Source: an uncultured Actinomycetes bacterium (GTDB taxonomy: Bacteria > Actinomycetota > Thermoleophilia > RBG-16-64-13). Taken from it: a DNA stretch of 64,000 nt. Under the pieces are notes generated by a model. It saw only the letters and a list, made by a program, of their open reading frames with translations. It was not told the DNA's origin and did not search any database. Shown here one piece after another: positions 7,292 through 49,849 of the stretch (position 1 is its first letter; every line of letters begins with the position of its first letter). The DNA lies in NCBI GenBank assembly GCA_963841735.1, contig CAWJDT010000001.1:128001-192000 (forward strand), in the 5' to 3' direction. A program made the translations under genes and the position numbers.

Positions 7292-8488
7292 CTAGACCGC
7301 CTCCACCACAGTGGCGATGCCCTGGCCGCCGGCGATGCAGAGCGTGGCCAAGCCGTAGCGAGTACCGCGCTTCTTCATCTCATGCAGCAAGGTCACGAAT
7401 ATCCTGGCTCCGGAGCAACCCAACGGATGCCCGAGAGCGATGGCTCCACCGTTGACGTTGATGTCGGCCAAGCGATGGCCGATGCCCAGGTCCTTGATAC
7501 ACGCCAACGCCTGAGCGGCGAAAGCTTCGTTGAGTTCGATGAGCCCCATGTCGTCGAAGGTGAGGCCGGCGTTGGCCAGCGCCTTGCGGCTGGCAGGGGC
7601 CGGCCCGATGCCCATGATCTCCGGAGAAACACCGGCGATGCCCATGCCCCTGATGACCGCCATGGGCTTGAGGCCTCTTCTGGTCGCCTCTTTGGCCGAC
7701 ATGACCAAAGTGCACGCGGCACCGTCGTTACGGCCCGAGGCGTTGCCGGCCGTCACCGTGCCGCCGTCTTTGAAGACGGGCGGTAGTCCAGCCAACCCTT
7801 CCAGCGTGCTCTTCCGCGGATGTTCATCGGTGTCGAAGACAACCGTGGCCTTGCGCTGCTTGATCTCCACCGGCACGATCTCGTCCTTGAAACGTCCGGA
7901 CTCTATGGCGGCGAAGGCTCTGTTCTGGCTCTCCAGCGAGAACGCGTCTTGCTCTTCCCGGCTGATGCCGTATTTGACCGCCAGGTTCTCGGCGGTGAGA
8001 CCCATGTTCAGGTTGGCGCCGTAGACCTCGATGGGCTGCGAGCGCGGCTGGCTCTCGGTATTGGAGTCGACCAACACGGCGTTGCCGGCCCCATATCCGT
8101 AGCGGGCACCACGCAGATAGTAGGGGGCCTTGCTCATGTTCTCCACCCCACCCGCGAGGATGATGTCGGCCTGACCGGCCATGATGGACATGGCGGCGTT
8201 GTGGATGGCCGTTAGACCCGAGCCACACTGCCGCATCACCGTGTAGGCCGGAATCTCGATGGGCATGCCCGCCTTGAGCATGGCCACCCGAGCCAGGTTG
8301 GCGGCGTCGGCGCTCTGCTTGGTCTGGCCGAGGATGACCTCGTCCACCGCCTCCGCCTCTACCCCCGCCTGCTTCAGGGCTTCCAGGATGACTATCTTGC
8401 CCAGATCCTCCGGCTCGACGTCCTTGAGTCCTCCGCCCAGCCTACCTACCGCCGTTCTCACGGCACTGACGATCACAACTTGTTCCAT
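7292..8488 (-). CDS. Thiolase (acetyl-CoA C-acyltransferase)
   Basis: QCGSG, NEAFAAQ, GGAIALGHPLGCSG, CIAGGQG. Confidence 0.96.
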   Translation of the reverse strand: MEQVVIVSAVRTAVGRLGGGLKDVEPEDLGKIVILEALKQAGVEAEAVDEVILGQTKQSADAANLARVAMLKAGMPIEIPAYTVMRQCGSGLTAIHNAAMSIMAGQADIILAGGVENMSKAPYYLRGARYGYGAGNAVLVDSNTESQPRSQPIEVYGANLNMGLTAENLAVKYGISREEQDAFSLESQNRAFAAIESGRFKDEIVPVEIKQRKATVVFDTDEHPRKSTLEGLAGLPPVFKDGGTVTAGNASGRNDGAACTLVMSAKEATRRGLKPMAVIRGMGIAGVSPEIMGIGPAPASRKALANAGLTFDDMGLIELNEAFAAQALACIKDLGIGHRLADINVNGGAIALGHPLGCSGARIFVTLLHEMKKRGTRYGLATLCIAGGQGIATVVEAV

Positions 8489-8546
8489 GAGACCTTTTCC
8501 GTTGTTTGTTGCGCTGCTATGTCTTCTGCTTCAAGCTTCTGCAAGT

Positions 8547-9386
8547 TTACTTGAACGGCTCCAATACGATCTCTCCTAGGTCGACGTCCGTCTGCGTGTA
8601 GACCTCGATGACCATGGAGGCATAGCCGTCCAAGTCGATGCCCACCCGATAGTCGGTGTTCTTCTCCAGCCCTTCGAACTCGAAGTCGCCGTAGCTGTCG
8701 GAGCGGGACTCGATTGTCTGACCCCCACCTTCCAGTGTGATCTTCACACCCTCGGCGCACTCGCCGGGGAAGTCACGCCGAACCACTTCACCCACCACAA
8801 ACTTCTTGGGCAGACCGAAGTACTTGACCGTCGGAGAAGTGCCGTATTCGGGATGGTAGACCTCAGGGCTGAGAGCAGCCGCGGCTTTGGCGATCTCACT
8901 GTTGGCGTCGTCCAGGTCGCCGAAGATGAGTGCTCCGGTGGGGCAGGCCTCCACGCAACGGGGCAGCGCCTCGCCTTCGTCCAGCCGGTGGGCGCACATG
9001 GTGCACTTCTGCGGAATATCGAGCTCGGCGTTCCAGAACACCACTCGGTAAGGACAAGAGCTGACAATGGCCTTCTGTCCCTTGGCCTTGGTGGGGTCGA
9101 TGATGACGATGCCGTCCTCGCGCCGGTACACGGCCTCATCGGCGGCCACCTCGATGCAGGGCGCCTTCTCGCAGTGCATGCACGGCGTGGGGATGTAGTC
9201 GAGCTTGGGCTTGGGAAAACTGCCCCGCTCGACCTCTTTGATCTGCATCCAGAACTGCCCGTCAAGCGGCTGAGGGGCCGAGTACGGGCTGTAGTCGTTC
9301 TCGAAGTACTCGTCGCGGCAGGCTAGAAAACAGTTGTAGCAACCGCTGCACTTGGTCACATCAAAAAGCATGCTCAGGCGTGCCAT
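8547..9386 (-). CDS. Transhydroxylase-type beta subunit (FeS protein with C-terminal beta-sandwich)
   Basis: CSGCYNCFLAC, CMHCEKAPC, CTMCAH...CVEACP; third motif reduced to CPY; C-terminal SDSYGDFEF domain. Confidence 0.88.
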   Translation of the reverse strand: MARLSMLFDVTKCSGCYNCFLACRDEYFENDYSPYSAPQPLDGQFWMQIKEVERGSFPKPKLDYIPTPCMHCEKAPCIEVAADEAVYRREDGIVIIDPTKAKGQKAIVSSCPYRVVFWNAELDIPQKCTMCAHRLDEGEALPRCVEACPTGALIFGDLDDANSEIAKAAAALSPEVYHPEYGTSPTVKYFGLPKKFVVGEVVRRDFPGECAEGVKITLEGGGQTIESRSDSYGDFEFEGLEKNTDYRVGIDLDGYASMVIEVYTQTDVDLGEIVLEPFK

Positions 9387-9390: not shown

Positions 9391-11919
9391 CTAGCCCTCC
9401 CATTTCTCGATCTCGATGAGGCAGGAATTGGGCGTCATGCCCGGCACGTTCTTGGACATCATGCGTGAGGGGGTGAGCATGGCCACGCACCCACCCCGGT
9501 CCATGGAGTCTGCTTCGCCCGGCTGCAGCGGATCGTACAGGGCCGAGGATGCGTAGCTGTGGATAGTGCCGGGGCGGATGCGCCCGGTGATGACCGCCAT
9601 GCAAAGCACCGAGGCGCGGTCGTTGTAGAGCCGCACGATATCGTGGTTGTTGATGCCGCGCTCAGCCGCGTCCTCGGGGTTGACGCGCACCGGCCACCAC
9701 GGATGCCCGTCCTTCTTGATGCGGTGGGTCTCGATGTCGTTGAGCCAGTCGGTGTGCTTGTCGTAGTGACAATGGAACGAGAACCGCGGATGCGGGGAGA
9801 TAAGCTGAAGTGGGTACTTATCGTACAGCCCGGGTGTCCTGTAGCCCTCGAAGCTCTGGATGTACCGCGGCACCACCGGACGCTCGTCGTCGTCGGGGAA
9901 GTACTGCTTGAGGCTCTCCGACGCGAACTCGATCTTGCCGCTGAAAGTGCCCAACTCGCCGCCCTTATCGGTGAGGCGCTTGTTGTTACCCGGGTCGGGG
10001 GTGTCGCAATCCCTACCCTCGTAGAACCAACGCAGCCCAGGGGTGGCCTTGTAGTCGTCCTTGATGTTGATGATGTGGTAGCCCTTGCGGTTGAACTCTT
10101 CCCAGCTCACCTCGTTCGGCAGGTCGGAGATCTCGAAGAACTTCTTGACCCAGTCGGCCTCGGTCTTGCCACCATCGGTGTACTCGTTACGCAGGTCCAT
10201 CTTCTCGAAGATAAGCGCGAAGATCTCGTAGTCGGACTTGGACTCCCAAAGAGGCTCGATGCACTTCTGCTCGCGCACGACCACGCGGTAGTTGCAGCCA
10301 CTGCTGGCGTGCCAGGTGTAGCCGTTGACGGCCGCCCATTCGCCGATGTCGTCGCGCTCGAAGTTGGTGCAGGCCGGCAGGATGACGTCGGCCATGCGGG
10401 TCTCGCTGTTGAACCAGACGTCCTGATTGACCACGAACTCCAGCTTGGGGCTCTGGTACATGCGCACCCACTTGGTGGTGTCGGCCATGGTGCCCATGAA
10501 GGACCCACCGTAGCGGTACCACAGCTTGATCTCGGAGCAACCTTCGGCCGGGTAGTTGAAGTGAGTGAACTGCTGCTCCAGCGACTTGCCGCAGAAGCCC
10601 TCGCCGTGCCACTCGACGTGTCCTTCGAGGATGGCTTCCGGCACCGTGAGCCGCCACAGACGCTGCGGGTTGTTGTTCACGGGGATGTAGTCGCAGGCCA
10701 TGGGTGGACATCGACACACGCCCGGCGGGCTCACCGTAGGCTGGGAACCAAACAGTGGTGTCGTTGGGCGCGCCCATAGTGGTGCCCCAGATGCCGCGGC
10801 CCGGAGCGCCCAGACCCTGCATGGCCTGCAGCAGCACCATCATGCGGGCCCACTCGGTGGCGAACGCCTGCCGGCAGGCCCCGCCTTCGCCGCCGCGCGA
10901 TCCGCCGGAAAGAATGGTGCGCTTGGCGGTCCACTCGCGCGCCAGCGTGCGGATGACCCGGGCTTCGACGCCGGATTCCTCGGCAGCCCACTCGGGAGTC
11001 TTAGGCACCCCGTCGGTCTCACCCAGGATGTACTCCTTGAACTCCTCGAAGCCGAGGGTGCGATCGCGGACGTAGTCCTTGTTGTAAGTGTCTTCGGTGA
11101 TCCACACGTACGCTACGGCCATAGCCAGGGCCGCGTCGGTGCCCGGCCGCGGGGCGATCCACTTGCCCCCCATGACGGCGTTGGTGTAGTTGTGGAAGGG
11201 ATCTATGAAGACCATCTTGACGCCCTTCTCCTTGAGCCACTGCCGCCAAAGGGCGGAGTCCTGGCCGGAGTAGGTGCCCCGAGTGGTATCCGGGTCGTTG
11301 GACCAGTAGACGATCATCTCTGCGTTCTGCAGGGCGTCGCTCAGCATGTCGTAGGGCTCGGGCATACCCAGCCGCCACTGGAAGCCGTAGGTGTGAGTCG
11401 CCCCCCAGTGCCACCCCTCCCAGCTGTCAGGGTTGTCGAGCACCGGGGTGCCTTCCACCATGTTGAGGAAGCGGGCGAACGGGCCCCATCTTGTAGCCGA
11501 CGATGCCCCAGTTGTGATGCGAGGAGGTCAGGCCGCTGATGGCCGAACCACCGTATGTCTCTTTGACGCGCGTGAGCTCGGAAGCCACCAGCGTGGCCGC
11601 TTCGTCCCAGGAGATGCGTACATAGCGCGACTTGCCGCGGTTCTGCGGGTTGCGCTCGCCGTTGGGATCGAAATCCACCCGCTTCATGGGGTACTTGATG
11701 CGCTCGTCGGAGTAGATGCGACGACGCTCCGCATGTACGCAGGGTGAGAGTGTGACCTTCTTGGGCGGGGAGTACTCCTTGCCGTCGGCCTCGATGACCC
11801 AAGGCTTCGTAGTCGTCCGGGTCGACCACCAGCGGCCTGATCCTGACGATCTTTCCGTCTTTGACGTATACGGACACCGGCCCGCTATTGGTGCAGTTCG
11901 CGAAGACCTTTTCAGCCAT
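9391..11919 (-). CDS. Mo-bisPGD oxidoreductase, pyrogallol transhydroxylase family alpha subunit (copy 1); about 3 frameshifts
   Basis: [31 protein letters not shown] (Ser ligand), PRPGTD, GGACR, SPHPRFSFH; no Tat signal or N-terminal FeS motif. Confidence 0.85.
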
Positions 11920-11966: not shown

Positions 11967-12031
11967 ACGATATCTCGATATTATTGGATAATACTGTTAA
12001 TATCGTAGAGTAGGTTGCGTCGATTTGCAAG
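11967..12031 (-). promoter_or_regulatory. sigma70-type promoter (TTGCAA-N17-TACGAT) plus operator, homologous to 21697-21761
   Basis: -35 at 12025-12030, -10 at 12002-12007; downstream TATTATCCAATAATATCGAGATATCGT. Confidence 0.7.
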
Positions 12032-12074
12032 GAGTGCGGACGCTCTGCGACCCGCAAACCGCGTCGGGGGAGCC

Positions 12075-12880
12075 ATGGCGACGACGACAGTATCGCGAGA
12101 CACCGACGCCTTCCAGGTGAGAGCGCTGACCCGGGGCCTCTCTATCTTATGCCTGTTCGACGTCGACAACCGGGAATGGACCATAGACGAGATGGCCGAG
12201 CAGACCGGCTTGGTTCGTATGACGGTCTATCGGATGGCCCGCACTCTCGAGTCCATGGCGTTTCTGGTACGAATCCTTCGACCAACCACTACAGGTTGGG
12301 GCCGGCCATCATCGCCATGCGATACGTCTCCGACGACCAGTCGGGTTTTGTGAATGCAGCGCGCCCCTTTCTGGAAGTCGCTTGCGCGTGAGACGGGTGA
12401 GTCCGTCACGCTCGCCGTCGAGGTCGATGGCTATCCGGTTTGCGTGGACATCATCAACACCACTCGCCCCTTCAAGCGCCGCACCGCTCCCGGACGAATC
12501 TTGGGCAACGTGGCCACGGTGCACGGCAAGCTATTCAATGCGTTCGAAGCCCCGCGGAGAGACAGGCGATGCTGGCCAAACCCGTGCTGCAGAGAATGAC
12601 CGACACTGTCGTCGATCGCGAGGCCATCTTGGCGGAACTGGATCAGGTCGCCCACGATGGGAGTGGCCTACGACATCGAGGGCACCTACAGCGGGCCTCT
12701 GCGCGGTGGGGGCCCCTGTGCGCGATCAGTTCGGCGCTGTAGCCGCGGCGATGTCGGTGGTCATGCCGGCCGGGCGCTTCGGGCCGGCCGAGAGGGCGCT
12801 ATGCACCGAGGCGGTCAAGAAGGCTGCCACTGTCGTTCTCGGCCTACCTAGGTTGGACTCCTGGACGGTCTTCCACCTAG
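12075..12880 (+). CDS. IclR-family transcriptional regulator; several frameshifts
   Basis: VRALTRGLSIL HTH, ETGESVTL, ATVHGK, CAVGAPVRD; fragments co-linear with the paralog at 17953-18771. Confidence 0.8.
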
Positions 12881-13011: not shown

Positions 13012-15648
13012 ATGGCAGACGAGAAGCGCAAGAAGGTCGACGTTAGCGTCGACAAGGTAACGATCAAGAACTTGGCTATGGGGGGGCTACTGGGAGGCGG
13101 CGGAGAGTGCTTCGTCGACGTCAAGGACGGCAAGGCCGTAAGGATCAGGCCGTACAAGTACGACTGGAAGACAGGATTTCGAGAAGCTCAGACCCCTGGA
13201 CCATCGAGCGCAACGGCGAGACGCTGAGGCCCCTGGCCAAAGCCCTTCCGGCACCGTTCTCGCTCGCTTACAAGAAGAGGACGTTTTCGCCCAACCGGGT
13301 GAAGTTCCCCATGGTGCGGGTCGACTGGGACCCGAACGGCGAGCGTAATCCCCAGAACCGCGGCAAAAGCAAGTACAGGCGGATCTCCTGGGACGAAGCC
13401 GATCGACATCATCGCCGCCGAGATCAGACGGATCCACAAGGAATATGGCCCGCTCGCCATCCTCGCCCAAGGCGATGGCCACGGCGAGAACAAGACCATC
13501 CATACCCCCCACGGCCACCAGGCCCGGCTGCTCGACATGATGGGCGGGTTCACCCAGCAGGTCCGCAACCCGGACAGCTGGGAAGGCTGGTACTGGGGAG
13601 CCAAGCACGTGTGGGGCCAGGGCTTCCAAGGCATGATGTCGCCGGCGGCCAACCTCATCAAGGACATCTCCGAGAATTGCGACATGGTGCTCAAGTGGGG
13701 CTGCGACGAAGAGACCACCCCTTGGGGCTTCACCGGCCAGTACGCCAGCCGCATCTCCCAGTTCTGGACGCGCGCGGGCATCAAGCAGGTGTACATCTGC
13801 CCCGACCTCAACTACGCCGCCGCGGTCCACGGTGACAAGTGGATCCCGGTGCTTCCCAACACCGACGCCGCTCTGCAGCTGGCCATCATCTATGTGTGGC
13901 TGACTGAGGACACCTGGAACAAGGAGTACGTCAAGACCCACGCGGTCGGCATGGATGAGGTGGCCGAGTACGTTCTGGGCAACGACGAGGACGGCCACAG
14001 CCAAGACCCCCGAGTGGGCCTCGAAGATCTGCGGCGTGCCTGAGTGGACCATCAAGGCCCTAGCGCGGGAGTTTGCCAAGAACATCACTTCGATCATCCA
14101 CTACTTCGGCGGTTCGGCCTTCCGCGGCCCGTACTCGCACGAACCCGGCCGGCTGGAGTGCGTGCTGTTGGGCATGCAGGGGCTCGGCGGGCCCGGCGTG
14201 CACCAGTGCCAGATGACCTACTTCGGCATGCCTCGGGCCGAGGGTCTGGGAAGCGTCCGCTTCTTCAACCCCGATCTGCCCGAGCGACTCACCAAGCCCT
14301 GCTGGACCACGGTGCACGCTTGGGGCCCGCAGCTCATCCCCAAGACCCTCATCCAGGACGCCATCATGAAGGCCCCGTTGGTCTTCCACGGCAGCGGCGG
14401 CCAGGAGTGCCAGACCGAGGAGCAGTTCACCAAGCTACACCTACCCGATCGCGAAGGAAAAGGGCGGCGTCCGCATCCACATGATGTGGACCGACACGCC
14501 GTGCCGCATCACCTGCTGGAACCACGGCAACTGGACTATCGAGGCCATGAAGGACCAGAGCATCGAGTTCGTCTTGGCTCAGCACCCTTGGCTGGAGAAC
14601 GACTGCCTCTACGCCGACATGATCCTGCCGGCCAACACCACGCTCGAGGTCGAGGACATCGTCACCACCACCCGGCAGGGCCCACACTTCGCCAGCGTCT
14701 CCATCCAGGAGCAGTCGATCCTCCCGGTGGGCGAGTCGAAGAGCGACTACGAGATCGTGGCCGACCATCGCCGAGACGTTGGGCAAGGGCGACGAGTTCA
14801 GCGGCGGCCTCTCCACCCTGGACCTGCAGAAGCTGGTCTTCGACGCCATGAAGATGGACAAGCTCACCACGTGGGAAGACTTCTACGAAAAGAAGACCTA
14901 CGTGTACGCCACCGCCCACGACTGGGAAGCATGACCCGCCAGGCTTCCGCAAGTTCTACGAGGACCCGAAGGCGAATCCGCTTCCGACCCCCACCGGCCT
15001 GCTTGGAGTTCTACTCCGAGGCGCTGGCAGTGCACTTTCCCGACGACAAAGAACGCCCACCGTTCCCGAAGTGGGTGCCGAAGGGCATCACGCACGACGA
15101 GGACCTCTCGAGCGAGCGCGCCGACATGTTCCCGCTGCTGCTGATGTCCAACCACCCGCGCTGGCGCACGCACGCCCAGGGCGACGACATCAGCTGGACC
15201 CGTGAGACCCCGACCGGCAAGGTACTGGGCTTCGACGGCTACCGGTACGAGCCCATCTGGATCAACCCGGCCGACGCTGCAGACACGCTGCATCAACGAC
15301 GGCGACGTGGTCAAGATCTTCAACGAGCGCGGCATCGTGCTCGTGGGCGCCCGCGTCTGGGAGCGCATCCGACCCGGCGTGGTCTACGTAGATCACGGTG
15401 CGCGGCACGACCCACTGGTGCCCGGCAAGGTGGACCGCGGTGGCGCCATCAACACCATCGCCCCCAACGGGCTTACGTCGAAGAACTGCTGCGGCCAGGC
15501 CACGAGCGGCTACCTGGTAGACGTTGCGAAGGTCAAGAACGAGGAATGGGAGAAATGGCGCAGGGAGCATCCTGAGGCTTTCGCCAGAAAGTACGACCAA
15601 GGTGCAGGCTTGCGCTTCGACGCCTGGATAGAGGGAGACGACAAATGA
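13012..15648 (+). CDS. Mo-bisPGD oxidoreductase, transhydroxylase-related alpha subunit (copy 2, divergent); many frameshifts
   Basis: [55 protein letters not shown] spread over about 7 ORF fragments. Confidence 0.8.
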
Positions 15649-16463
15649 AGGCTTTCGTCATCGACGTCGAGCTCTGCGTAGGCTGCTACGCCTGCCAGTT
15701 CGTCTGCAAAGACGAGCACGTCGGCAACGACTGGTCGCCCATCGCCAAACCCCAGCCCGACACCGGCCAGTTCTGGATGAGGCTGGACGAGCACATCCGC
15801 GGCACCGTGCCCAAGGTCGAGATGCACTACATCCCGAATCCGTGCATGCACTGCGCCGAACCCCCGTGCGTGCCGCCGTGCCCGATCGAGGGCGCCATCT
15901 ACAAGCGCGAAGACGGCCTGGTCATCATCGATTCAGAGAAGTGCACCGGTTGCGGGCGCTGCGTGGATGTCTGCCCGTACGCGGCCATCTACTTCAACGA
16001 CGACCTCCACCTGGCGCAGAAGTGCACCGGTTGCGCCCACCTGCTGGACGGCGGCGAGTGGACGGTGCCCAGATGCGTCGATGCCTGCCCTACCGAGGCG
16101 ATCAAGTTCGGCGAGGAGAGCGAGTTCGCGGCCGAGATCGCCAAGGCTGAGGTGCTGAGGCCCGAGTTGGGCCACAAGCCCCGCGTCTACTACCTGAACA
16201 TCCCCAAGAAGTTCATCGGCGGCACGGTCTACGATCCGGCGGACAAGGAAGTCATAGTGGGTGCCAGCTGCACGCTGGCCGGTGCGGATGACAAGACGCT
16301 GACCGCGACGACGGATGGCTTCGGCGACTTCTGGTTCCGCGGCCTGGCCGACGGCGCCAGCTACAAACTGACCATCGCGGCGAAGGGCTTCAAAGACAAG
16401 ACCTTCGATGCCGTGGTCACCGAGAAGGACGTCAACCTGGGAGATATCGCGCTGACGAAGTAG
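15645..16463 (+). CDS. FeS beta subunit (4x[4Fe-4S] with C-terminal beta-sandwich)
   Basis: Four complete Cys motifs including CTGCGRCVDVCPY; TDGFGDFWF domain; ATGA overlap. Confidence 0.9.
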   Translation: MKAFVIDVELCVGCYACQFVCKDEHVGNDWSPIAKPQPDTGQFWMRLDEHIRGTVPKVEMHYIPNPCMHCAEPPCVPPCPIEGAIYKREDGLVIIDSEKCTGCGRCVDVCPYAAIYFNDDLHLAQKCTGCAHLLDGGEWTVPRCVDACPTEAIKFGEESEFAAEIAKAEVLRPELGHKPRVYYLNIPKKFIGGTVYDPADKEVIVGASCTLAGADDKTLTATTDGFGDFWFRGLADGASYKLTIAAKGFKDKTFDAVVTEKDVNLGDIALTK

Positions 16464-17952: not shown

Positions 17953-18771
17953 TTACCGGTGTGAGTAGCCCAGGAACGCCGAGATCGTCGCCGCGGAGGC
18001 CTTGACGGCCTCGCCGTAGGCCCGCTTCTCCTTGGGACCAAAGCGCCCGGTGGGGACGATCAGAGAGACGGCCGCCACCACTACGCCGAGCTGGTCGCGC
18101 ACGGGTGCCGCCACCGCGCAGGTGCCGACGTTGCGCTCTTCCATGTCGAAAGCCACCCCGGCGCTTGCCACTCGGTCCAGCTCGGCGGCAAGCTCAGTGG
18201 GTTCGGTGATGGTGTTGGGAGTCAGCTGGGGATGAGGGCTGGCGAGGATGCCTTCCCTCTCAGCAACAGACTTGAAGGCCGAGAAGACCTTGCCATTGGC
18301 GCTGGCCGTGTCGCCGATGATGCGCCCCACGGCGACCTCACGACGGAAGGGGCGGGGGGTGTCGACCATGTCGACACTCACCGCCACCCCGTCGACTTCC
18401 ATAGCTAGGGTAGCCGCTTCACCCGTCTTCTCTGTGAGCTCCTGCAGATACGGGCGCGAGATGGCCGCGAGCTCGGCGTAGCCCTCCGACAGATAGGTGG
18501 AGGAGAGCAACGCCGGGCCCAGATGGTACCGATTGGTCACCGAATCGCGCACCAGGTACCAGGCCGACTCCATGGTCCGAATCATTCGATAGGCAGTCAT
18601 GCGGGGAAGACCGGCGCGTTCCGCGATCTCGTCCAGAGTCCATTCCCGGTTCTCGGCGTCGAACAGTGAGAGTATCGAAAGCCCCTTAGCCAGGGCACGC
18701 ACCATGAAGGCGCTGTCCCCACCGTTTGCAGACTTCGCACGTTGCTCTGTTCTAGCTTCCGTTCCGGCCAT
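17953..18771 (-). CDS. IclR-family transcriptional regulator
   Basis: VRALAKGLSIL HTH, TGEAATL, SANGK, TPNTIT, CAVAAPVRD. Confidence 0.93.
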   Translation of the reverse strand: MAGTEARTEQRAKSANGGDSAFMVRALAKGLSILSLFDAENREWTLDEIAERAGLPRMTAYRMIRTMESAWYLVRDSVTNRYHLGPALLSSTYLSEGYAELAAISRPYLQELTEKTGEAATLAMEVDGVAVSVDMVDTPRPFRREVAVGRIIGDTASANGKVFSAFKSVAEREGILASPHPQLTPNTITEPTELAAELDRVASAGVAFDMEERNVGTCAVAAPVRDQLGVVVAAVSLIVPTGRFGPKEKRAYGEAVKASAATISAFLGYSHR

Positions 18772-18802: not shown

Positions 18803-19579
18803 TCACGCGAAGGCCATTGTCCCGCCGTCGGGATACAGGATAGTGCCCGTGACGAAATCGGACGCTGCCGAAGCCAAGAACACCGCCGGACCAATGAGGT
18901 CCTCGGGCTCGCCAAACCGTCCCATGGGGATGTTGTTCAGCGTCTTGGCGTAGCGCTCGGGATTGTTCTTGATGGTCTCTTTGGTCATGGGCGTAGCGGT
19001 GATGATGGGGCCCAAGGCGTTCACCAGAACGTTCTTGGACGCCAACTCCACAGCCAGAGTGCGGGTGATCATGTCCACGGCGCCCTTGGTGGCGCAGTAG
19101 CCCATGTTGCCACCACCGGCAGCACGCAGGCCACGGATAGATGACAGGTTGATGATCTTGCCGCCACCCTGCTCGACCATGTGAGCCGCGAAGTTCTTGC
19201 AACACAGCATGACGCCGCGCACGTTGACCGAGAACAGCTTGTCCCACGCCTCGGCGGGAAACTCAGTTGCGGCACCCTTGATGTTGAAGCCCTGGGCGTT
19301 CACCAACACGTGCACACGACCCATGTCGGCTACGGTGTTCTTGACCAACGCCTGGATGTTGTCTTCCTGGTCGGTGTTGACCGAGTAGGTTTTCACCTTT
19401 GCGCCGGTCTTGGCTTCGATCTCAGCGGCCGCGCTCTTCAGCCCGTCCTCGTTGATGTCGGCGATAGCTACCTGTGCTCCGTACTCCGCCAGGCCAGCCG
19501 CGAGCACTCGCCCGAGACCACCGGCGCCGCCGATGACCACCGCGTTCTTACCCTTCAGCGAAAAGAGATTATCTTTCAT
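18803..19579 (-). CDS. SDR family oxidoreductase (NAD(H)-type; phloroglucinol-reductase-like)
   Basis: GGAGGLG, IADIN (Asp), SSIR, YCATK, VNALGP, DGG. Confidence 0.85.
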   Translation of the reverse strand: MKDNLFSLKGKNAVVIGGAGGLGRVLAAGLAEYGAQVAIADINEDGLKSAAAEIEAKTGAKVKTYSVNTDQEDNIQALVKNTVADMGRVHVLVNAQGFNIKGAATEFPAEAWDKLFSVNVRGVMLCCKNFAAHMVEQGGGKIINLSSIRGLRAAGGGNMGYCATKGAVDMITRTLAVELASKNVLVNALGPIITATPMTKETIKNNPERYAKTLNNIPMGRFGEPEDLIGPAVFLASAASDFVTGTILYPDGGTMAFA

Positions 19580-27525: not shown

Positions 27526-28146
27526 TCACGCTCCGCCGGTCTCGCAATCGCCGGCAGGTGCGTTCGCGCTCTGAGCCCCCAGGCGAAAGGCCTGCAGGTT
27601 GACGTCGATAGTCTTGGGGGGCACCGCCCTACGGATTACCGCTTCCCAAGTGTCGGTGGCAAAAGGAAGCGCCGGCGAGATAGCACCCAGCATGGCCACG
27701 TTGGCCGCCTTGACTGTACCGGCCTTGGCGGCCAGCTCGTTGGCATTCACACACTTGGCGTTAGACCAAGTGGCCTTTATGAGGCCGTAGATGTCCTCGG
27801 GGTAGGTGGCCAATCCAGCAGAGACCGGGCTGGGATTGATGCGCAGGGCGTTGTAGACCAGCTCGCCGCCCGGTTTCAGCCAATTGAGGTAGCGCAGTGC
27901 TTCCAAGGCCTCGAAGGCCATAAGTAGGTCGGCAGTGCCCTGCACCACCAACGGTGACCACACCTTGTCGCCGAAGCGGAAGTGGCTGACCACACTGCCA
28001 CCGCGCTGAGCCATGCCGTGCACTTCACTCTGCTTGACATCGTAGCCCTCGCTCATGGCCACCTGGCTGAGCACGTAGCTGGCCAGCACCACACCCTGGC
28101 CCCCCACTCCGGCCAGAAGCACATTCATGGTAGGACGGGCGGTCAT
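27526..28146 (-). CDS. iorB: Indolepyruvate ferredoxin oxidoreductase beta subunit
   Basis: GVGGQG, SEVHGMAQRGGSV, NVAMLGA. Confidence 0.93.
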   Translation of the reverse strand: MTARPTMNVLLAGVGGQGVVLASYVLSQVAMSEGYDVKQSEVHGMAQRGGSVVSHFRFGDKVWSPLVVQGTADLLMAFEALEALRYLNWLKPGGELVYNALRINPSPVSAGLATYPEDIYGLIKATWSNAKCVNANELAAKAGTVKAANVAMLGAISPALPFATDTWEAVIRRAVPPKTIDVNLQAFRLGAQSANAPAGDCETGGA

Positions 28147-29992: not shown

Positions 29993-30003
29993 ATCTCCTC
30001 CAC

Positions 30004-42471: not shown

Positions 42472-43314
42472 TCATGACATCATCACATCCCCCAGATTAA
42501 CGCTGCCGGTTTTCAGTGCTACGTCTATTCTTCTCTCACGGCCCAAGAACGAAACCAAAACCACATAGACGCCGCTTTCCCCTTCCAGATGGTCGAACTT
42601 GAAGTCTCCGTAGCAGTCCGTCAACGCGATCGCGATGATCCCCCCGTCCCGAGTCAGGGTCACTGTGGCGCCCTGTGCACATTCGCCCACGCCGTCCTTC
42701 TTGTGCGAGACGCTTCCACCGATAAAACAGTGGCTATAGAGGTACAGGTTCTTGTAGTACACCCGTGGCCTCGTCTCCATTTCGGGCTGGAGGGTATGAA
42801 GCTCTTCTGCCTCGGCTCGGGCCGCCATTTCGTTGTCTTCAACACAGACCGCCACCAAAGCGCCGGTGGGACAGGACTGCACGCAGCGGGGCTTATCCCA
42901 CTTACCGTCCAGTAGGTGAGCGCAGAGGGTGCACTTCTGGGGAACGTTCCTCTCCTCGTTCCAGAAGATAGCGCCGTATGGACAGGCCTTGACCAGGTCC
43001 TTCTGCCCAGCCGCCTTTTGGGGGTCGATGATCACGATGCCGTCGGCGCGCTTGTAGACGGCCTGGCGAAGGGCCTTCTCGATACAAGGAGCGTCGTCAC
43101 AGTGCATACATGGTGTCGGCCGGTAGGCCACGTCCATCATGGGTGCCGCTCCCCGCTCTTTGCGCATGATGTTCATCCAGCGATGCCCGTGCAGCGGTTG
43201 GGCCAGGGCGCAGCCGGGCCAGTCATTCCCCACGTGCTCGTCTTTACAGGCCAGGAAGCAGTTGTTGCAGTCCTCGCATCTGGCTACGTCGATGATCAGG
43301 TTCCATCTACGCAT
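42472..43314 (-). CDS. Transhydroxylase-type beta subunit
   Basis: CEDCNNCFLACKDEH, CMHC, reduced CPY motif, CTLCAH...CVQSCP, TDCYGDFKF. Confidence 0.9.
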   Translation of the reverse strand: MRRWNLIIDVARCEDCNNCFLACKDEHVGNDWPGCALAQPLHGHRWMNIMRKERGAAPMMDVAYRPTPCMHCDDAPCIEKALRQAVYKRADGIVIIDPQKAAGQKDLVKACPYGAIFWNEERNVPQKCTLCAHLLDGKWDKPRCVQSCPTGALVAVCVEDNEMAARAEAEELHTLQPEMETRPRVYYKNLYLYSHCFIGGSVSHKKDGVGECAQGATVTLTRDGGIIAIALTDCYGDFKFDHLEGESGVYVVLVSFLGRERRIDVALKTGSVNLGDVMMS

Positions 43315-46300
43315 TGACGGCTTCTTTCTCTTTCCATTTCTCGACTTCTATCAGGCAGCTGTTCACGGCGATTGAATGCGACCGCTTTATGATGGAGCGG
43401 TGAGGGGTCAGCAGGTTCACACTGCCGGCACGATCGGGGGAGCTGCCCGGTTCGCCGATCGGATCGTAGGAGGCCGACGCTTCGTAGGAGTGCACGGTGC
43501 CCTGCGATATCCGCTCGGTGACCTGAGCCGCGCAGATGACCGCGCCCCTATCGTTGTGCAGTCTCACCAGATCGTTGGTCTTGATGCCCCGCTTTTCGGC
43601 GTCGCTGGGGCTGATCCGAGCGATCCAGTAGTAGTAGCCGTCGATAAGGACGCGGTGGTCCTTGATGTCGTTGATGGTGCTGTCCTTGGCGTCCCCCATG
43701 GAGTGGAAGCTGTAGCGCGGATGAGGCGAGATCAGGCTCAGCGGATACTTCTCAAACAATCCCTCGGTGTGGATACCCTCCCAGGACGGCATGTAGGTGG
43801 GAATGGGGCGCCGCTCGGGATCATCGGGAGCGAAGCGCTTGAGGCTCGAGCACGAGAACTCGAATTTACCCGACTGTGTCTGCAGGCCGTGCAGGTACTC
43901 CTTGTAGTCGGCCGGAAGAGGGGCCAGCTTCAGGTGTGTCTTTGGGACGGCCCTCGGCGAACCACCGAAAAGAAACCGGGTCGCGCATCTCCTCCTTGGG
44001 CGCCCCCAGCACGTAGTAGCCCTTCTTCAGAAACCGCTTCCAGGAGATCTTCTTGGACAGGTCGCTCGCCTCAAAGAGCCGCCGCACCCAATCCAGTTCG
44101 GTGACGCCCTCCGAGTACATCATCCCCAGCCCCAGACGCTGCGCCAGTTCGTAGAAGATCTGGTAGTCCGATTTTGATTCACCCAATGGTTCGATGCACT
44201 TGTGCTGCAGGACGAAGATGCGGTGATTGCACTGGTTGAAGCTGTGCTGGATAAAGCCGGCGCAGTTGGCGGATTCGCTGATGTCCCATCGTTCGAAACT
44301 GGTGCAGGCCGGCAGGATGATGTCGGCGAACTTGGCTTCGCCCTCGAACCAGATGCCTTGGTTGACAACAAATTCGAGGTTCTCGGTGCGGTAGGCGTCG
44401 ACCCAGCGATTGGTATCGCTCATGGTGCCTATGAAGGCGCCGCCGTACCTGTAGTACATCCGGACGGGCGCGCACCCCTCCATGGGGTAGCTGACCTTGG
44501 CGAACTGGGATTCGATGGAAGTGGGGTCCAGCATATAGCCCTCAGCCCTGCCCTCCAGGATCGCTTCCGGCAGGCGCTGCTTGGGGACTCTCTGAGGCAC
44601 CGTGTTGATGGTGGGGAGTTGCGGCATGCGCTGGTACATACTGACGATGCTCGCGTTGCTCTTCACATCTCCGGACAGTCCCCCCTCACAGTAGCCGGGG
44701 AAGTAGAAGTGGGTGTCCACGGGGGTACCTTGCTGAGCGGAGCCCATGTTGACCCCGGGTTTGCCGATGCCCTGCATGGCCATCATGCAGACCATGATGC
44801 GCGCCCATTCGATGCCGGAGGCCGAGCGGCAGGCGCCGCCGAACCCAGTCAGGCCGCCGGCGGCCAGATAGGTGCGCTTGTTCCCCCACTCACGGGCTAA
44901 GGCGCGGACATCTTTCGCCGGAATGCCGGACTCCGGCTCCTGCCACTCGGGCGTCTTGGCTATGCCATCGCTCGTCCCGAGGATGTAGTCGTTCCACTCG
45001 TCGAATCCGGTGGTCCTTGCTTCGACGTATTCCTTGTCATACAGACCTTCGACGAGCCACGTGTGCACGATGGCCAGGGCCATGGCGTTTTCGGTGCCCG
45101 GCCTGGGCGCGAACCACTTGCCGCCGAACAGGGCCGCCGTACTGTTGTAGTAGGGGTCGACGTGGACGAACTTCACGCCCAGATCTTTAAGCCACTGCCG
45201 CCGGACGGTGCCTTCGAAAGCACCGTAGACCCCGCCTGTGGCTTCCGGGTCGCTCGACCAGAACACAACCATCTCGCAGTGTTTCAAGCAGTCTTCAACG
45301 GTGCCGTAGGACTCAGGCGCACCGAGCCGCATCGAATGGCCCCAGTGATGCGAGGCGCCCCAGTACCAACCCTCCCAAGAATCGGGGTTCATGACAGCCT
45401 GCGTGTGGCCGATGAGGTTCATGAAGCGGGCCCTGGCGCTGATGTGATAGCCCAGATAGCCAAAGGTGTGATGCGACGGGTGGGTATTGAGGATGGCGCC
45501 GGGACCGTGCTCCGTCTTCATCCGTCTTGATCTCTCCGGCGACTATTTCGAGAGCCTCGTCCCAGCCAATGCGTTCATATCCTGAGATGCCGCGATTACG
45601 GGGGTTGCGCTCGCCTTTGGGATCGAAGTCGACCCGCTTCATGGGATAGAGCATCCGCTCGGACGAATAGACCATCGATTTCCAGGCCTGGGCGTGAGGG
45701 GAGATCGTCGATCTGCGCGGCGGCGTGAAGCTTCTCCCTCGGGCCTCGATGGTCCACGGTTTTGGGTCGGTGTCGTCGAACTCGATGGGCGTGATGCGGA
45801 TGATCTTGCCGGCCTTCACATAGACGAAACACGGCCCTCCATTGGTGTTGCTGGTGTAGCGCTTGACACCATCTCCCGCGTCGGTTCCGTGCTTCCGGCA
45901 AGACATAAGGCTCAACATGACGGATAGTGTTTCGAAGAACCACGACCCCAGAAGATCCGAGCCCTCGTACGTGATCTGAAAGTTCTTGAGCGCGTTCTGC
46001 ATCTCCAACTGGGCCGTGTTGAGCCCCATCATCCTTGCCGGAAGGCCCTGCTCCCTAAGACCAAGGCGGGCGCAAAGAGAAGCCAATGCCTTCTTCACGA
46101 ACACACTGACGGCAACGTGCTGGTCGGAGAATCTTATGGTGTAGTCCGCACGCCGGTCGATGCCTCGCGCGGATCGCATCCGGCCATCCTTGAGATAGAA
46201 GCATCTGCCCACGGAGCCGTCTTGGAGCTCGATCTGAAAGTCCACGTCCTTTTGCCTCAACCGGGCGGCGAACTCGGGAAAGCGCCAAGCGGTGAAACGC

Positions 46301-46359
46301 ACCAACGGCGCCAGCGAGAACAGAACCAGCGAAAGCAGAGTCTTCTTGAACATGAGCAC
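43307..46359 (-). CDS. Mo-bisPGD oxidoreductase, pyrogallol transhydroxylase family alpha subunit (copy 3) with N-terminal extension; about 3 frameshifts
   Basis: [61 protein letters not shown]. Confidence 0.87.
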
Positions 46360-47087: not shown

Positions 47088-48443
47088 TTAGCCCCGCCAG
47101 TTGCGCCCAGTCTCGATCATGGCCTTAAGGTTCTCGGCCTTAGCATCGTCAAGCGCGGCCCCGTTGCGCAGGTAGAAGCCGCCGTCCTTGGCACACGTGT
47201 CGAGCAGGTCGGTAACGTACTCTTCGACCTCGGCCGCACCCGCCAGCGCCAGAAGCGCGGTGGGCACGTTGCCGGATATACAGGCGTAGCCCCCCAGGGC
47301 TCGCTTGGCAGCAGCCATGTCGGTCTGATCGAGCAGCCACATGGCGCTGCCGGCAGGCAGATCGTCGTCGGCGATGATGTCCAAACGCTTGCCGTAGCTG
47401 CCCTGAGCGAACATGGTCGGAACCAAGCCCTGGTCGATAAGACCCTTCATCACGGCCTTCAGTGTCGGCCAGTAGAAGGTGCGAAAATCCGCATCCGACA
47501 TGAAGTTGTCGGCGCCCTTGTGCAGCCAGAACATGACGAGGGGCGATTCGGCCCAGGCCCCCTGACGCACACACTGGTCGATCATCAGCGGGACGAACCG
47601 TTCAGCCGCCTCAAGGATCTTGTCCGGTTGACGGAAACGGTCGAGCATGATGCCTTTGGTGCCGCGCAGGGTGTCGGCCAAAACATCGTACGGGGCTTTG
47701 GCCGAGCCGGTCCACTCGGGCGGTATACCCAGACGACCCGCCGCCTCGGCATCAGCGGCCTTTGTCACCTTCATCCACGCGAAACACTCCCCGGCCACCG
47801 CGGCCAACTGCTGCATTCCTTCGACCAGTCCTGGAGAGGCAAAGCCGAGCATGTTGTAGGGCATGGCGGCCGCTTCCATGAAATCTGTGAATGGCGGCAT
47901 GGCTGCCAGGGGGCCGAAGGCCGAGCCGAAGCGGGGCAACAACGACCGCCGAAAGTAGCCTTCGGGGTCGGCGATAAGGGCGTCGTACTCATCCGCCTTC
48001 ATGTACTCGGCTTCCAGGTACTGCCAGGGGGTCTCGTCCGGTAGACCATGCCCAGGCCAGTCGACGAAGTTCAGCCCCAGCAGCTCAAACACCTTCGCGG
48101 GAGAGACAGTCTTCACCTGAAAGTCCGGGCGAAAATCCTCGTGGAACTTGACGAGTGCCGTGGCGGATCTCTGGTAGTCGTACATGGCCTCTTTCTTGGT
48201 GAGACCGCTGTACTTGCCCGAGTAGAAGCCCACGTTCGCCGAGACCGGCACGCGCTCCGGCTTCTTCAGTGTGATGGCGTCAACCAGGAGTTGGACGCGC
48301 TGCTTGTAGTCGTCTTGGACGGCATCGCTCGCGAACTCGACCCCACGCGCGCTCGACCACCGCTGGAAACGACGCTCGCGACGCTCTTTCCAGTCCAATT
48401 TATCCCAGCCGTCAAACATCGGGTCCGGTGCACCCCAGCTCAT
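47088..48443 (-). CDS. Uroporphyrinogen decarboxylase/MtaA-like family protein
   Basis: PERVPV, EYMKADEYD, DTLRG, LHKG, FYWPTL, GNVP, ENLKAM. Confidence 0.85.
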   Translation of the reverse strand: MSWGAPDPMFDGWDKLDWKERRERRFQRWSSARGVEFASDAVQDDYKQRVQLLVDAITLKKPERVPVSANVGFYSGKYSGLTKKEAMYDYQRSATALVKFHEDFRPDFQVKTVSPAKVFELLGLNFVDWPGHGLPDETPWQYLEAEYMKADEYDALIADPEGYFRRSLLPRFGSAFGPLAAMPPFTDFMEAAAMPYNMLGFASPGLVEGMQQLAAVAGECFAWMKVTKAADAEAAGRLGIPPEWTGSAKAPYDVLADTLRGTKGIMLDRFRQPDKILEAAERFVPLMIDQCVRQGAWAESPLVMFWLHKGADNFMSDADFRTFYWPTLKAVMKGLIDQGLVPTMFAQGSYGKRLDIIADDDLPAGSAMWLLDQTDMAAAKRALGGYACISGNVPTALLALAGAAEVEEYVTDLLDTCAKDGGFYLRNGAALDDAKAENLKAMIETGRNWRG

Positions 48444-49849
48444 ATTCGCTCCTTCATAGAACCTAGCGACTTCGTTACACAAGGAATGGTTGTTACATCG
48501 ACGTTCTCGTTGCGGTTCTCATTCAAGTAGGGGAACCGAGATACTGTGGCTCGGATCTCCTTCTGCCGGGTCCCTGGATCGCCCCAGAGCACGGTGACCT
48601 GGGTACCGAGTTCGCCGTGCCCCACATCGATGGAGCAAAGCGACAGCATCGCCCGATAGTAGTAGCTGTAGGCCCGGCCGGAACTCACTCCGACGATTCT
48701 ACCGTCTCGCAGTACCTGGTCGGCGTGCATGATGTGGCCCCCATGACGCTGGCCCAGATCGATCGGGTCCATCCACGCATAGGGCTCGCCGTCTCTGTAT
48801 TGCGACAAGTGCACGTCGAGCAGATCCTCGATGTCCCAGACCAGGGTGACCATCTTCCGCCGTGGTTGCTGCACTTCTTTCTCCAGGGCGACGCGTCCGA
48901 TGAAGTCGTGATCGAACTTGATGGTCTTCCCCCATCCGAGTTCCACCGGACTACGGTAGCGCAGCTTGATGTCCGCCCCCATGCTCCCGGCCAAGGTTGC
49001 CGGCAGCCCGTCCATCTCCGGGGGCATGCCGAGAAACGCCATGAAGCCTTTGTCGTCCCCCCAAGGCAGCGGGAAATGGACGAAAGACTGCGGAAAGCCG
49101 TTCTGGGTGTGGTTCATCTGATAGACACGCCAGCCGAGCTTGGTCAGCCCGAAGGGTTCTCCCGCCGCTACGATGGCGTCGTAGAGAAGTACCGCTTCGC
49201 TGGTAGAACCGTGGACCTCGTAGGCGAGAGTCCCTGCCATGCCCATGCGGGTGATCCGTACATCCATGCCCTGGATGCTGCTCATACGGTGATGGCCGAA
49301 CTTGATGTCATGCAGGCACTCGCCGGTAGCCACCTCAAGTATCTCGAGAGACCGCGGGCCGCCAAGCTGAAGCAGCAAGCGATCGTTCACCCATTCGCCC
49401 CGCGCGTCGTACCCACCCGTGTAGAACTTATAGGCTGCGTAAGGCGCCAGGAAGTAGGTGATGAAGTCGTCTTCCGCCACTCGTAGCAGCACACCGTGGG
49501 CTATGACCATCCCCTGCTCGTTGCACATGATGGCGTGCTTCAGGGTGCCGACGGCGAAGTTGGCGAAGCTGTTCACGCAGATATCGGAGAAGAACCTCAG
49601 CGCATCGGGCCCCTTTACCCGGAACGTGGGAGCAGGATTGAGGCCCGCGTGTAGGTAGCAGCCCGTCTTCCAGGACACCTCCTCCTCACGCCATCCGCTG
49701 TACTCAAGAGGGACGACGGAGTCGAGTCCCATACCGAACACCCTGCTATAGATGTAGAAATCCACATTGGGGTCGTACGCGGCATACGGGAGGTGGGAGA
49801 AGCTCCTCTCCGCTCCGTCGTGTGGCGCCGCTTCACCTATGCCGCCCAC
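48440..49849 (-). CDS. Aminomethyltransferase family (LigM/DesA-like THF-dependent demethylase)
   Basis: EYSGWREE..SWK, NSFANF, RMGMAG..YEVHG, SPVELGW, FDHDFIG, LWGDPG. Confidence 0.85.
   Translation of the reverse strand: MGGIGEAAPHDGAERSFSHLPYAAYDPNVDFYIYSRVFGMGLDSVVPLEYSGWREEEVSWKTGCYLHAGLNPAPTFRVKGPDALRFFSDICVNSFANFAVGTLKHAIMCNEQGMVIAHGVLLRVAEDDFITYFLAPYAAYKFYTGGYDARGEWVNDRLLLQLGGPRSLEILEVATGECLHDIKFGHHRMSSIQGMDVRITRMGMAGTLAYEVHGSTSEAVLLYDAIVAAGEPFGLTKLGWRVYQMNHTQNGFPQSFVHFPLPWGDDKGFMAFLGMPPEMDGLPATLAGSMGADIKLRYRSPVELGWGKTIKFDHDFIGRVALEKEVQQPRRKMVTLVWDIEDLLDVHLSQYRDGEPYAWMDPIDLGQRHGGHIMHADQVLRDGRIVGVSSGRAYSYYYRAMLSLCSIDVGHGELGTQVTVLWGDPGTRQKEIRATVSRFPYLNENRNENVDVTTIPCVTKSLGSMKERI

Follow-up and report, generated by a model that had tools for sequence, protein, structure and literature searches.

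A conserved gene island in an uncultured member of the Thermoleophilia, with a candidate role in the anaerobic breakdown of hydroxylated aromatics

We propose a model for a gene island in an uncultured actinomycete of the RBG-16-64-13 group, which we take to be an order of Thermoleophilia, from a 64,000-nucleotide stretch of its DNA (the window; GCA_963841735.1, contig CAWJDT010000001.1, positions 128,001 to 192,000). The 7.3-34.6 kb core of the window is a real conserved island whose genes are grouped beyond chance, and we read it, at a probability of about 0.5, as an island for the anaerobic breakdown of hydroxylated aromatics, most likely flavonoid-derived and in relatives arylalkylamine-derived. 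By analogy, it probably operates like the known flavonoid/phloroglucinol clusters, on a related, side-chain-bearing substrate. The model is built from observed gene identities, residues, synteny and tree positions, and from these it infers the substrates, the direction of each molybdenum (Mo) enzyme and the order of steps. In a side-chain arm, an LVIVD-repeat hydrolase would release a hydroxyphenylpyruvate, which IorAB would convert to an arylacetyl-CoA and an ADP-forming acyl-CoA synthetase (the ligase) to hydroxyphenylacetate and ATP. The hydroxyls would be re-patterned by two transhydroxylase-family enzymes, TH1 and TH2, which would add a ring hydroxyl, and by a membrane-anchored, catechol-dehydroxylase-like enzyme (the Mo enzyme), which would remove one; the three together may amount to a split transhydroxylase whose product is a meta-hydroxylated ring open to reduction. 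In a ring arm, a short-chain dehydrogenase/reductase (SDR) from a clade sister to the phloroglucinol reductases (PGRs) would reduce the ring, a hydrolase (a cyclase encoded elsewhere, or the LVIVD protein) would open it, and a 3-hydroxyacyl-CoA-dehydrogenase-family enzyme (the dehydrogenase), a beta-keto acid cleavage enzyme (BKACE) and a thiolase would cut the product to acyl-CoAs.

The grouping is seen in related genomes. A genome scan with the Mo enzyme gave, from the best 80 of 135 matches, 67 related loci (labelled L001 onward), sorted by title into 45 from Actinomycetota, 8 from Chloroflexota and 14 others (Desulfobacterota, SAR324, Acidobacteriota or unassigned); a gene was counted as present at 45% identity (60% for TH genes) within 10 kb on each side of the Mo gene. 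Among the Actinomycetota loci of at least 21 kb, 36 of 37 have one or more of five companion modules, in varied gene orders (the 8 shorter loci were excluded), and nearly everywhere the Fe-S and NrfD genes come ahead of the Mo gene. Across all 45 Actinomycetota loci TH2 occurs in 14, TH1 in 12 and a fourth paralogue, TH4, in 9; the SDR and the dehydrogenase occur in 29 each, BKACE in 22, IorA in 17, the ligase in 13, the LVIVD gene in 5 and a thiolase orthologue (69-76%) in 4, while an IclR regulator at 45% identity or more is found in 37. Of the 14 other loci, 13 have TH2 adjoining the Mo enzyme, while TH1 is present in 4 and the SDR in 3. This cross-phylum TH2 link, together with the varied gene orders, is a stronger synteny signal than the raw counts. 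A first-pass annotation of the window had named a LigM/DesA-like demethylase, three transhydroxylase-family Mo enzymes, an acetylene-hydratase-clade Mo enzyme, the SDR/BKACE/dehydrogenase run, the thiolase and the ligase, every one of which is present where it was placed (by ORF translation and family scans), and had joined them into a single catabolic region of about 42 kb. Synteny in related metagenome-assembled genomes (MAGs) bears out the island, but the full 42 kb (7292-49849) is not one pathway: the third transhydroxylase-family gene, TH3, and the LigM-like gene occur in 0 of the 67 loci. The features are as follows.

7292..8488, minus strand: thiolase (Thiolase_N/C; TIGR01930 above cut-off), downstream of TH1-AthB1
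8547..9386, minus strand: AthB-type Fe-S subunit of TH1 (Fer4_11 and a C-terminal carboxypeptidase-regulatory-like domain)
9391..11919, minus strand: TH1, transhydroxylase-family Mo subunit (three frame breaks; alignment to AthL)
12015..12837, plus strand: broken IclR regulator between TH1 and TH2 (HTH_IclR in one frame, IclR_C in another)
13012..15648, plus strand: TH2, divergent transhydroxylase-family Mo subunit (at least four frame breaks)
15645..16463, plus strand: AthB-type Fe-S subunit of TH2 (Pfam)
17953..18771, minus strand: IclR regulator that ends the dehydrogenase-BKACE-SDR run (Pfam)
18803..19579, minus strand: SDR, NAD-type (tree, sister clade to phloroglucinol reductases)
19620..20459, minus strand: BKACE (Pfam)
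20504..21463, minus strand: 3-hydroxyacyl-CoA-dehydrogenase-family enzyme (Pfam; outside the TfD clade)
21899..22672, plus strand: 4Fe-4S subunit of the membrane-anchored Mo enzyme (Pfam; in 63 of 67 loci)
22689..23648, plus strand: NrfD-type membrane anchor (PF03916)
23679..25916, plus strand: intact Cys-ligated Mo subunit, probably of the catechol-dehydroxylase/acetylene-hydratase clade (no TAT signal)
25999..27459, minus strand: MFS transporter (Pfam)
27526..28146, minus strand: IorB (NF005322 above cut-off)
28143..30046, minus strand: IorA (TIGR03336; one frame break near the C-terminus)
30004..32214, minus strand: ADP-forming acyl-CoA synthetase, ATP-grasp domain first (Pfam, NCBIfam; two frame breaks)
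32354..33679, minus strand: LVIVD beta-propeller, probable metallohydrolase, candidate auronol or ring hydrolase (model, Foldseek, context)
33867..34616, plus strand: GntR/FCD regulator divergent from the LVIVD gene (Pfam; in 8 of 45 Actinomycetota loci)
42472..46359, minus strand: TH3 (43307-46359) and its AthB-type subunit, probably a separate unit
47088..49849, minus strand: UroD/MtaA-like methyltransferase and LigM/DesA-like GcvT-family protein (48440-49849), island membership doubtful

The best PDB match of the Mo enzyme is acetylene hydratase (2e7z, 297 bits), whose Cys ligand (Cys141) it keeps, and its partners are an Fe-S subunit and an NrfD anchor. Acetylene hydratase function is ruled out by these redox partners and by a His in place of Asp13, a residue that presumably has its role in acetylene hydratase at the first Fe-S motif; the His is found in the window enzyme and in 115 of 120 near homologues, the other five being unmatched. 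Those 120 homologues are 69-97% identical among the matches listed, the named ones coming from Thermoleophilia, Dehalococcoidia and Desulfobacteraceae, and the family is an isolated one, with the next full-length representatives at 52% and then at 41% or less. Catechol dehydroxylases sit next to acetylene hydratase, and a homologue lies in the 3,5-dihydroxybenzoate operon of Thauera (PMC7028382). In the N-terminal part of the alignment published there, the Mo enzyme fits by eye the subgroup of dehydroxylase homologues from the Thauera 3,5-dihydroxybenzoate cluster, CC-1065/yatakemycin and Archaeoglobus, the Archaeoglobus fulgidus row being near-identical and the Thauera and Streptomyces rows sharing the motif. 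From its sequence we infer a candidate dehydroxylase of the catechol-dehydroxylase/acetylene-hydratase clade. The Thauera operon, we assume, also encodes the hydroxylase DbhL.

The transhydroxylase-family enzymes were compared with AthL, the pyrogallol-phloroglucinol transhydroxylase (PDB 4v4c), whose numbering is carried over by PDB alignment. Against it an intact TH1 orthologue (L019) scores 862 bits, an intact TH2 orthologue (L048) 441 bits, TH3 656 bits across 534 amino acids, and TH4, which is found in relatives only, 1177 bits. The three such enzymes first reported are present, each adjoined by an AthB-type Fe-S partner and with their fragments falling into three separate clades, but all are frameshifted and their pyrogallol-pocket residues are changed. 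TH1-TH4 keep His144, Asp174, Ser175 and Trp176; in AthL we take Ser175 to be the Mo ligand, acting with His144 and Asp174, Tyr404 to have a role as well, and Arg153 and Trp354 to form the pyrogallol pocket. This last pair is kept in none of the window enzymes, being Lys/Glu in TH1, Pro/Gly in TH2 and His/Phe in TH3. The TH1 orthologues have Lys153, with Glu354 in 8 of 9; TH2 has Pro or Thr at 153 and Gly354 and is without Tyr152 and Tyr404; TH3 has His153 (Trp in 8 homologues) and Phe354; Tyr404 is kept in TH1 and TH3. TH4 of the relatives keeps Arg153, Trp354, Tyr404, Phe468 and Tyr560. Several transhydroxylases in one fermenter have a precedent in Pelobacter massiliensis, and the suggested anaerobic hydroxy-aromatic theme with an expanded hydroxyl-transfer toolkit is supported. 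Two tandem TH2-type enzymes with differing pocket residues stand directly behind the Mo enzyme in L060, L061 and L065 (Desulfatiglans and related deltaproteobacteria).

For the ring arm the reference is the phloroglucinol pathway of Clostridium scatologenes, PGR-DPGC-TfD-TAL, in which the cyclase (DPGC) is the key ring-opening enzyme, PGR is marked by an NADPH-binding TR(S/N) motif and TAL by Trp16 at the Glu14 site of Kce (PMC10470551). The SDR clade is sister to four predicted cluster PGRs and apart from 10 controls (support 94/91); the SDR adjoins cyclase genes in L052 and L067 and is linked with the dehydrogenase in 28 of 45 Actinomycetota loci. Its cofactor site has an Asp in the window and in the Thermoleophilia orthologues (NAD-type), as against the NADPH-specific PGR, and the TR(S/N) motif is absent. 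Within the clade the cofactor type switches, with an NADP-type Ser-Arg in L051, L057 and L067. BKACE has Gly at the Glu14/Trp16 site, and two predicted cluster TALs are also without the Trp; a Kce of lysine fermentation is ruled out for it (no Glu14; 291.5 against a cut-off of 382). The dehydrogenase has the catalytic Ser, His and Asn of TfD, residues that are family-wide and not specific, and in a tree of 9 sequences a TfD-like clade (96/95) excludes it; a vitamin B6 route, suggested by the FHMPC dehydrogenase model, is unlikely (191 against a cut-off of 500, and not the top PDB match). One gene slot of the relatives (L009, L014 and L047 among others) holds either of two BKACEs that are not orthologous and about 36% alike, the window type in 8 loci and the other in 14, never both.

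A cluster of Acetoanaerobium noterae (L075), with gene names that rest on Pfam and published residues, holds an SDR, dehydrogenase, cyclase, BKACE, phloretin-hydrolase-like enzyme, flavin reductase, chalcone isomerase, Ptb, IorAB and a kinase. In the plasmid collection it is the top match for the window SDR (of 401 records) and for BKACE (51.8%; of 735), and it is not among the top 15 of 175 matches for the dehydrogenase. The cluster (10046-23755 of NZ_CP154629.1, a 2.6 Mb record filed as a plasmid) is an unannotated and apparently complete flavonoid/phloroglucinol cluster. The trees favour kinship for the SDR, speak against orthology for the dehydrogenase and place BKACE with low support (23/48). 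So far as sequence can tell, SDR, BKACE and dehydrogenase appear to be relatives, not orthologues, of PGR, TAL and TfD, and the ring-arm module resembles the phloroglucinol pathway and should not be classed as a member of it.

The same evidence bears on the canonical route, proposed in the first-pass annotation, in which O-demethylation of syringate or vanillate would lead through pyrogallol, phloroglucinol and triacetate to acetate, as in Pelobacter acidigallici and Clostridium scatologenes. At family level the window has counterparts to PGR, TfD, TAL, thiolase and AthLB, and the predicted phloroglucinol-cluster enzymes are themselves just 31-44% alike. A cyclase of RBG_16_64_13 shares a UniRef50 cluster with the C. 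scatologenes enzyme, and a cyclase may lie elsewhere in this genome. The window itself gave no tblastn match with two cyclase queries, and a cyclase is present in 2 of 67 related loci. Against the route stand, besides the missing cyclase, the change of Arg153 and Trp354 in TH1-3 while TH4 keeps both, the SDR cofactor site, the placement of the dehydrogenase, the apparent non-orthology of the ring-arm enzymes and the absence of a UbiD-type decarboxylase among the 67 ORFs scanned. The LigM/DesA-like gene that was to supply O-demethylation is unlinked to the island in relatives, and its best NCBIfam models, DesA (220.7 against 800) and LigM (207.2 against 580), score about a third of their cut-offs. 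We judge the canonical gallate route unlikely for this cluster, though the lineage may hold it elsewhere.

The side-chain arm begins with the LVIVD gene, which heads an LVIVD-ligase-IorA-IorB-MFS run. The IorA model TIGR03336 scores 606.5 against a cut-off of 650.9 on a frame-truncated ORF, IorB is above its cut-off and the subunits are adjacent. The ligase, present as reported but assigned to the fermentative route, belongs with IorAB; a role as the acetate-releasing step of triacetate cleavage is less likely than this link. IorA/IorB occur in 24 of the 67 loci overall and in each of the 12 that hold a chalcone-isomerase-like, phloretin-hydrolase-like, EthD-like or LVIVD gene. Among 5784 candidates 2715 homologues of the LVIVD protein were found, and 99 aligned sequences share invariant His135, His209, His261, Glu277, His344 and Glu415. 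Its beta-propeller model (pLDDT 95) has as best Foldseek match a Sphingobium binuclear phosphotriesterase (E 1e-16; next 5e-9); a wide fold search gave tied generic propellers (Z 28-30), among which the phosphotriesterase aligns over the greatest length (359 residues at 20% identity; Z 28.2, rmsd 3.1) yet ranks 30th, and the ESM Atlas returned 'LVIVD repeat' alone. The model makes the protein a probable metallohydrolase, and its genomic context makes it a candidate auronol (alphitonin) hydrolase. Cleavage of alphitonin to 3,4-dihydroxyphenylpyruvate is called hypothetical (PMC11170127; also bioRxiv 10.1101/2024.10.22.619724), we found no enzyme named for it in PMC13515148 and no mention of it in PMC11572103, and among the papers listed on alphitonin and auronols none was found to mention LVIVD. 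The best plasmid match of the LVIVD protein (46%) lies in a run with flavin reductase and chalcone isomerase genes; this run (L073:6816-12015, a Clostridioides difficile record; LysR, LVIVD, flavin reductase, DUF1097, chalcone isomerase) resembles a partial flavonol-conversion operon.

A bolder form of the model is tentative, and we hold it possible rather than expected: the island would carry an undescribed anaerobic ring cleavage of hydroxyphenylacetates (e.g. 3,4-dihydroxyphenylacetate), with a split, membrane-linked transhydroxylase common to at least four phyla, and the LVIVD protein would cleave auronols such as alphitonin to phloroglucinol and an arylpyruvate. Hydroxyphenylacetates are usually regarded as end products of flavonoid and catecholamine metabolism.

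A different use of IorAB is made by a reading in which the Mo enzyme and its two partners form a PadBCD-like trio that oxidises the side chain of arylacetyl-CoA to an arylglyoxylate, IorAB yields aroyl-CoA and the island serves aromatic amino acids or amines. Oxidation of arylacetyl-CoA is the known role of PadBCD (PMC5109826), thiamine-dependent 2-oxoacid enzymes recur at the loci (IorAB in 17 of 45 Actinomycetota, a Por-type set in L055, a decarboxylase in 3 Chloroflexota loci), and aminotransferase, aldehyde oxidoreductase and alanine dehydrogenase genes are frequent neighbours. The reading leaves the tight TH2 link unexplained, however, the Mo-enzyme N-terminus fits the dehydroxylase subgroup and a flavonoid cluster accounts for IorAB equally well, so that we consider it improbable.

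The Mo enzyme could also respire catechols as electron acceptors without ring cleavage (cf. Eggerthella), the SDR, dehydrogenase and BKACE acting on an unrelated acid. Its Fe-S subunit and anchor are as in dadh/cadh/hcdh (PMC7028382), hydrogenase and dehydroxylase expression correlate in peat (bioRxiv 10.1101/2024.10.22.619724), in the PDB the SDR best matches sugar-acid dehydrogenases, and the window has no cyclase. This is nonetheless a quite improbable account: no TAT motif is present in any of 120 near homologues, in contrast to the Eggerthella enzymes, and the SDR falls beside the PGRs in its tree and keeps the company of cyclases and of the dehydrogenase noted above. That the island is decaying here, the TH genes and ligase being true pseudogenes, is highly improbable: the breaks do fall in TH1 (3), TH2 (at least 4), TH3 (2-3), the ligase (2) and IorA (1) while the central genes, the Mo enzyme included, are intact, and they are not enriched at homopolymers (a run of 5 at 2 of 15), but eight aligned TH fragments have no in-frame stop, the unrelated LarA, IclR and CWB2 genes are also split, and 15 of 67 related loci have comparable scattered breaks in genes intact in the window, as expected of assembly errors. 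Because of the absent stops and the scattered breaks in relatives, assembly error is likelier than decay as the source.

The reading of the island as one for hydroxylated aromatics has to bear several opposing observations. The locus counts are inflated by kinship among the genomes, and the view extends 10 kb per side. TH genes are found in 0 of 8 Chloroflexota loci, which likewise hold no SDR, dehydrogenase, BKACE, IorA, ligase, LVIVD or thiolase gene, and TH1 and TH2 are frameshifted in the window. Nor does the window contain a cyclase, chalcone isomerase, phloretin hydrolase or flavin reductase of the cluster types, and the chalcone-isomerase-like neighbours in relatives are 23-29% identical. 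The margin for the SDR is thin, at 40.9% identity to the A. noterae PGR-like SDR, tied with a Deinococcus control, and in the SDR profile the solved PGR ranks 9th of 11. The tree placement of BKACE is poorly supported, a Priestia control is equally near TAL, and BKACE is absent from 7 of the 28 SDR-dehydrogenase loci. The dehydrogenase is nearer a Natrinema control (38%) than the TfD-like proteins (32-34%), and LVIVD homologues at 39% in Sinorhizobium have an unrelated context.

Neighbours found in the relatives and not in the window include a class III aminotransferase (21 loci), aldehyde ferredoxin oxidoreductase (15), alanine dehydrogenase (14), a MoaF-like protein (13) and an ABC transporter, as well as chalcone-isomerase-like (5) and phloretin-hydrolase-like genes (3; 40-46% identity) and the two cyclases. 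The chalcone-isomerase-like, phloretin-hydrolase-like and amine-oxidation genes point to hydroxyphenylacetates derived from flavonoids or amines. The amine module, which recurs beside the Mo enzyme across L001-L052 (the aminotransferase in 21 of 45 Actinomycetota loci) and is absent from the window, would supply arylacetates from arylalkylamines; MoaF is linked to the Klebsiella monoamine regulon. Beside the Mo enzyme/TH2 unit, L051, L057, L066 and L067 share a B12-binding radical SAM gene that resembles TIGR04190 and scores below its cut-off. In Chloroflexota loci L022-L024, L030, L039 and L040 the Mo enzyme stands, without transhydroxylases, with a thiamine-dependent decarboxylase, a carboxylesterase and a zinc alcohol dehydrogenase.

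On the right flank, TH3 carries an N-terminal extension of about 165 amino acids (45875-46359, minus strand), SCP2-like by eye and with a weak SCP2 lead in the ESM Atlas (0.81, 18% of members), and has homologues at 72-74% in other phyla. Its absence from the 67 loci applies within the 10 kb view. Because TH3-type proteins with similar fusions adjoin acyl-CoA synthetase, VOC and fumarylacetoacetate-hydrolase (FAH) genes on plasmids of aerobes, a role separate from the island is suggested. The nearest plasmid relatives of the LigM-like protein (46-47%) are aminomethyltransferase-family proteins of Deinococcus and Psychrobacter without assigned function, and its single-sequence fold (pLDDT 30) was discarded. 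From 47088 to 63492 two UroD/MtaA-like methyltransferases, a corrinoid protein, the GcvT-family protein, an ABC transporter, HyuA and two HyuB form a second, putative demethylation/hydrolysis cluster; the corrinoid protein and hydantoinase genes, like the LigM-like gene, are in none of the 67 loci within the same view, and UroD-like genes at 36-45% are in 4. The UroD-like and corrinoid proteins may, we assume, form a corrinoid O-demethylase, with no tie seen here to the island or to methoxy-aromatics.

Elsewhere in the window, which has 58-66% GC over its entire length, 192 ORFs were listed, of which 67 chosen ones were scanned against Pfam and 49 against NCBIfam. It starts with rplK, nusG, secE and four tRNAs (tRNA-Trp/Met/Thr/Tyr; 663-2876), about 4 kb from the left edge of the island; an Rfam scan of the window found the four tRNAs and nothing else, and no integrase is among the ORFs scanned. 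A LarA-family nickel-pincer 2-hydroxyacid racemase (4944-6252, minus strand), spread over two frames, was found in none of the 67 related loci; its substrates could be aryl-lactates or mandelates. At 35243-40284 (minus strand) the region is interrupted by a pair of secreted proteins that carry CWB2 cell-wall-binding repeats, which are better known from Bacillota; one also has PD40 repeats, and the other has TIG, matrixin and PKD domains and is split into two frames.

The Actinomycetota-like host named at the outset holds: apart from L029, on a 3.8 kb contig, every locus at 83-94% Mo-enzyme identity comes from an Actinomycetota-labelled MAG, RBG_16_64_13 (93%) among them, and the window LVIVD protein is 77% identical to a RBG_16_64_13 protein. 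We assume, from the gene numbering, that AF1202-AF1203 is the Archaeoglobus homologue of the Mo enzyme, near O29068. A. fulgidus O29068 is listed as a predicted phloroglucinol-pathway carrier (PMC10470551 supplement), and AF1202-AF1203 is termed an unknown formate dehydrogenase (PMC3949148). The same 2023 supplement gives four cyclase entries for RBG_16_64_13, one of them in the UniRef50 cluster of the C. scatologenes enzyme, and a 2024 preprint reports FCR, PHY or CHI transcripts from RBG-16-64-13, Chersky-299 and CAQPS01 in catechin-amended peat, together with wide expression of PGR, pgthAB and CDH (bioRxiv 10.1101/2024.10.22.619724). Given these entries and transcripts, the statement that no such pathway had been characterised in this group was too strong. 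In the open literature, to which our search was confined, we found no description of the island itself and no paper on a transhydroxylase in Thermoleophilia, and one of the papers listed names RBG-16-64-13; the preprint supplements may list these genes. Polyphenol metabolism is already flagged for the lineage, and the island of uncharacterised paralogues appears to be the new part.

Whether polyphenols are broken down where peat and sediment lack oxygen, and by what means, affects both carbon storage and methane release; in peat amended with catechin, uncultured Actinomycetota of this group belong to the active organisms (bioRxiv 10.1101/2024.10.22.619724). To judge from its sequence, a conserved cluster in such uncultured soil and sediment bacteria probably degrades plant polyphenol fragments without oxygen, by relatives of known enzymes. 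Annotation tools place these enzymes together under 'pgthAB', 'CDH' or 'TMAO reductase', whereas the island resolves distinct paralogues with fixed pocket signatures, of which intact, expressible orthologues exist. The LVIVD protein is a testable candidate for alphitonin cleavage, a step of flavonoid breakdown lacking an assigned enzyme.

Among known systems, the C. scatologenes pathway (PMC10470551) and the A. noterae cluster share with the island an SDR, a 3-hydroxyacyl-CoA-dehydrogenase-family enzyme, BKACE and thiolase standing together, IorAB with an ATP-yielding step and, in the relatives of the window, chalcone-isomerase-like and phloretin-hydrolase-like genes. The island differs in having no cyclase, a NAD-type SDR of a sister clade, a dehydrogenase outside the TfD clade and Gly at the TAL Trp site, in an ADP-forming ligase that replaces Ptb/Buk, and in three added Mo enzymes. 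TH1-3 share with AthLB the four conserved active-site residues and an adjacent AthB-type partner, but their pocket is altered, TH2 also lacks Tyr152 and Tyr404, TH3 is N-terminally extended, and the most AthL-like paralogue, TH4, is found in relatives and not in the window. The LigM and DesA O-demethylases are matched in GcvT family and best NCBIfam models, though far below cut-off and unlinked to the island. Acetylene hydratase 2e7z is the best solved match of the Mo enzyme, with Cys141 kept, and differs by the His at Asp13 and the redox partners. The catechol dehydroxylases Dadh and Dodh and the homologue of Thauera aromatica AR-1 (PMC7028382) resemble it in Cys ligand, Fe-S partner and anchor and probably in belonging to the acetylene-hydratase-related clade; the window enzyme differs in having an NrfD anchor yet no TAT signal, belongs to an isolated family and is tied to TH2 across phyla.

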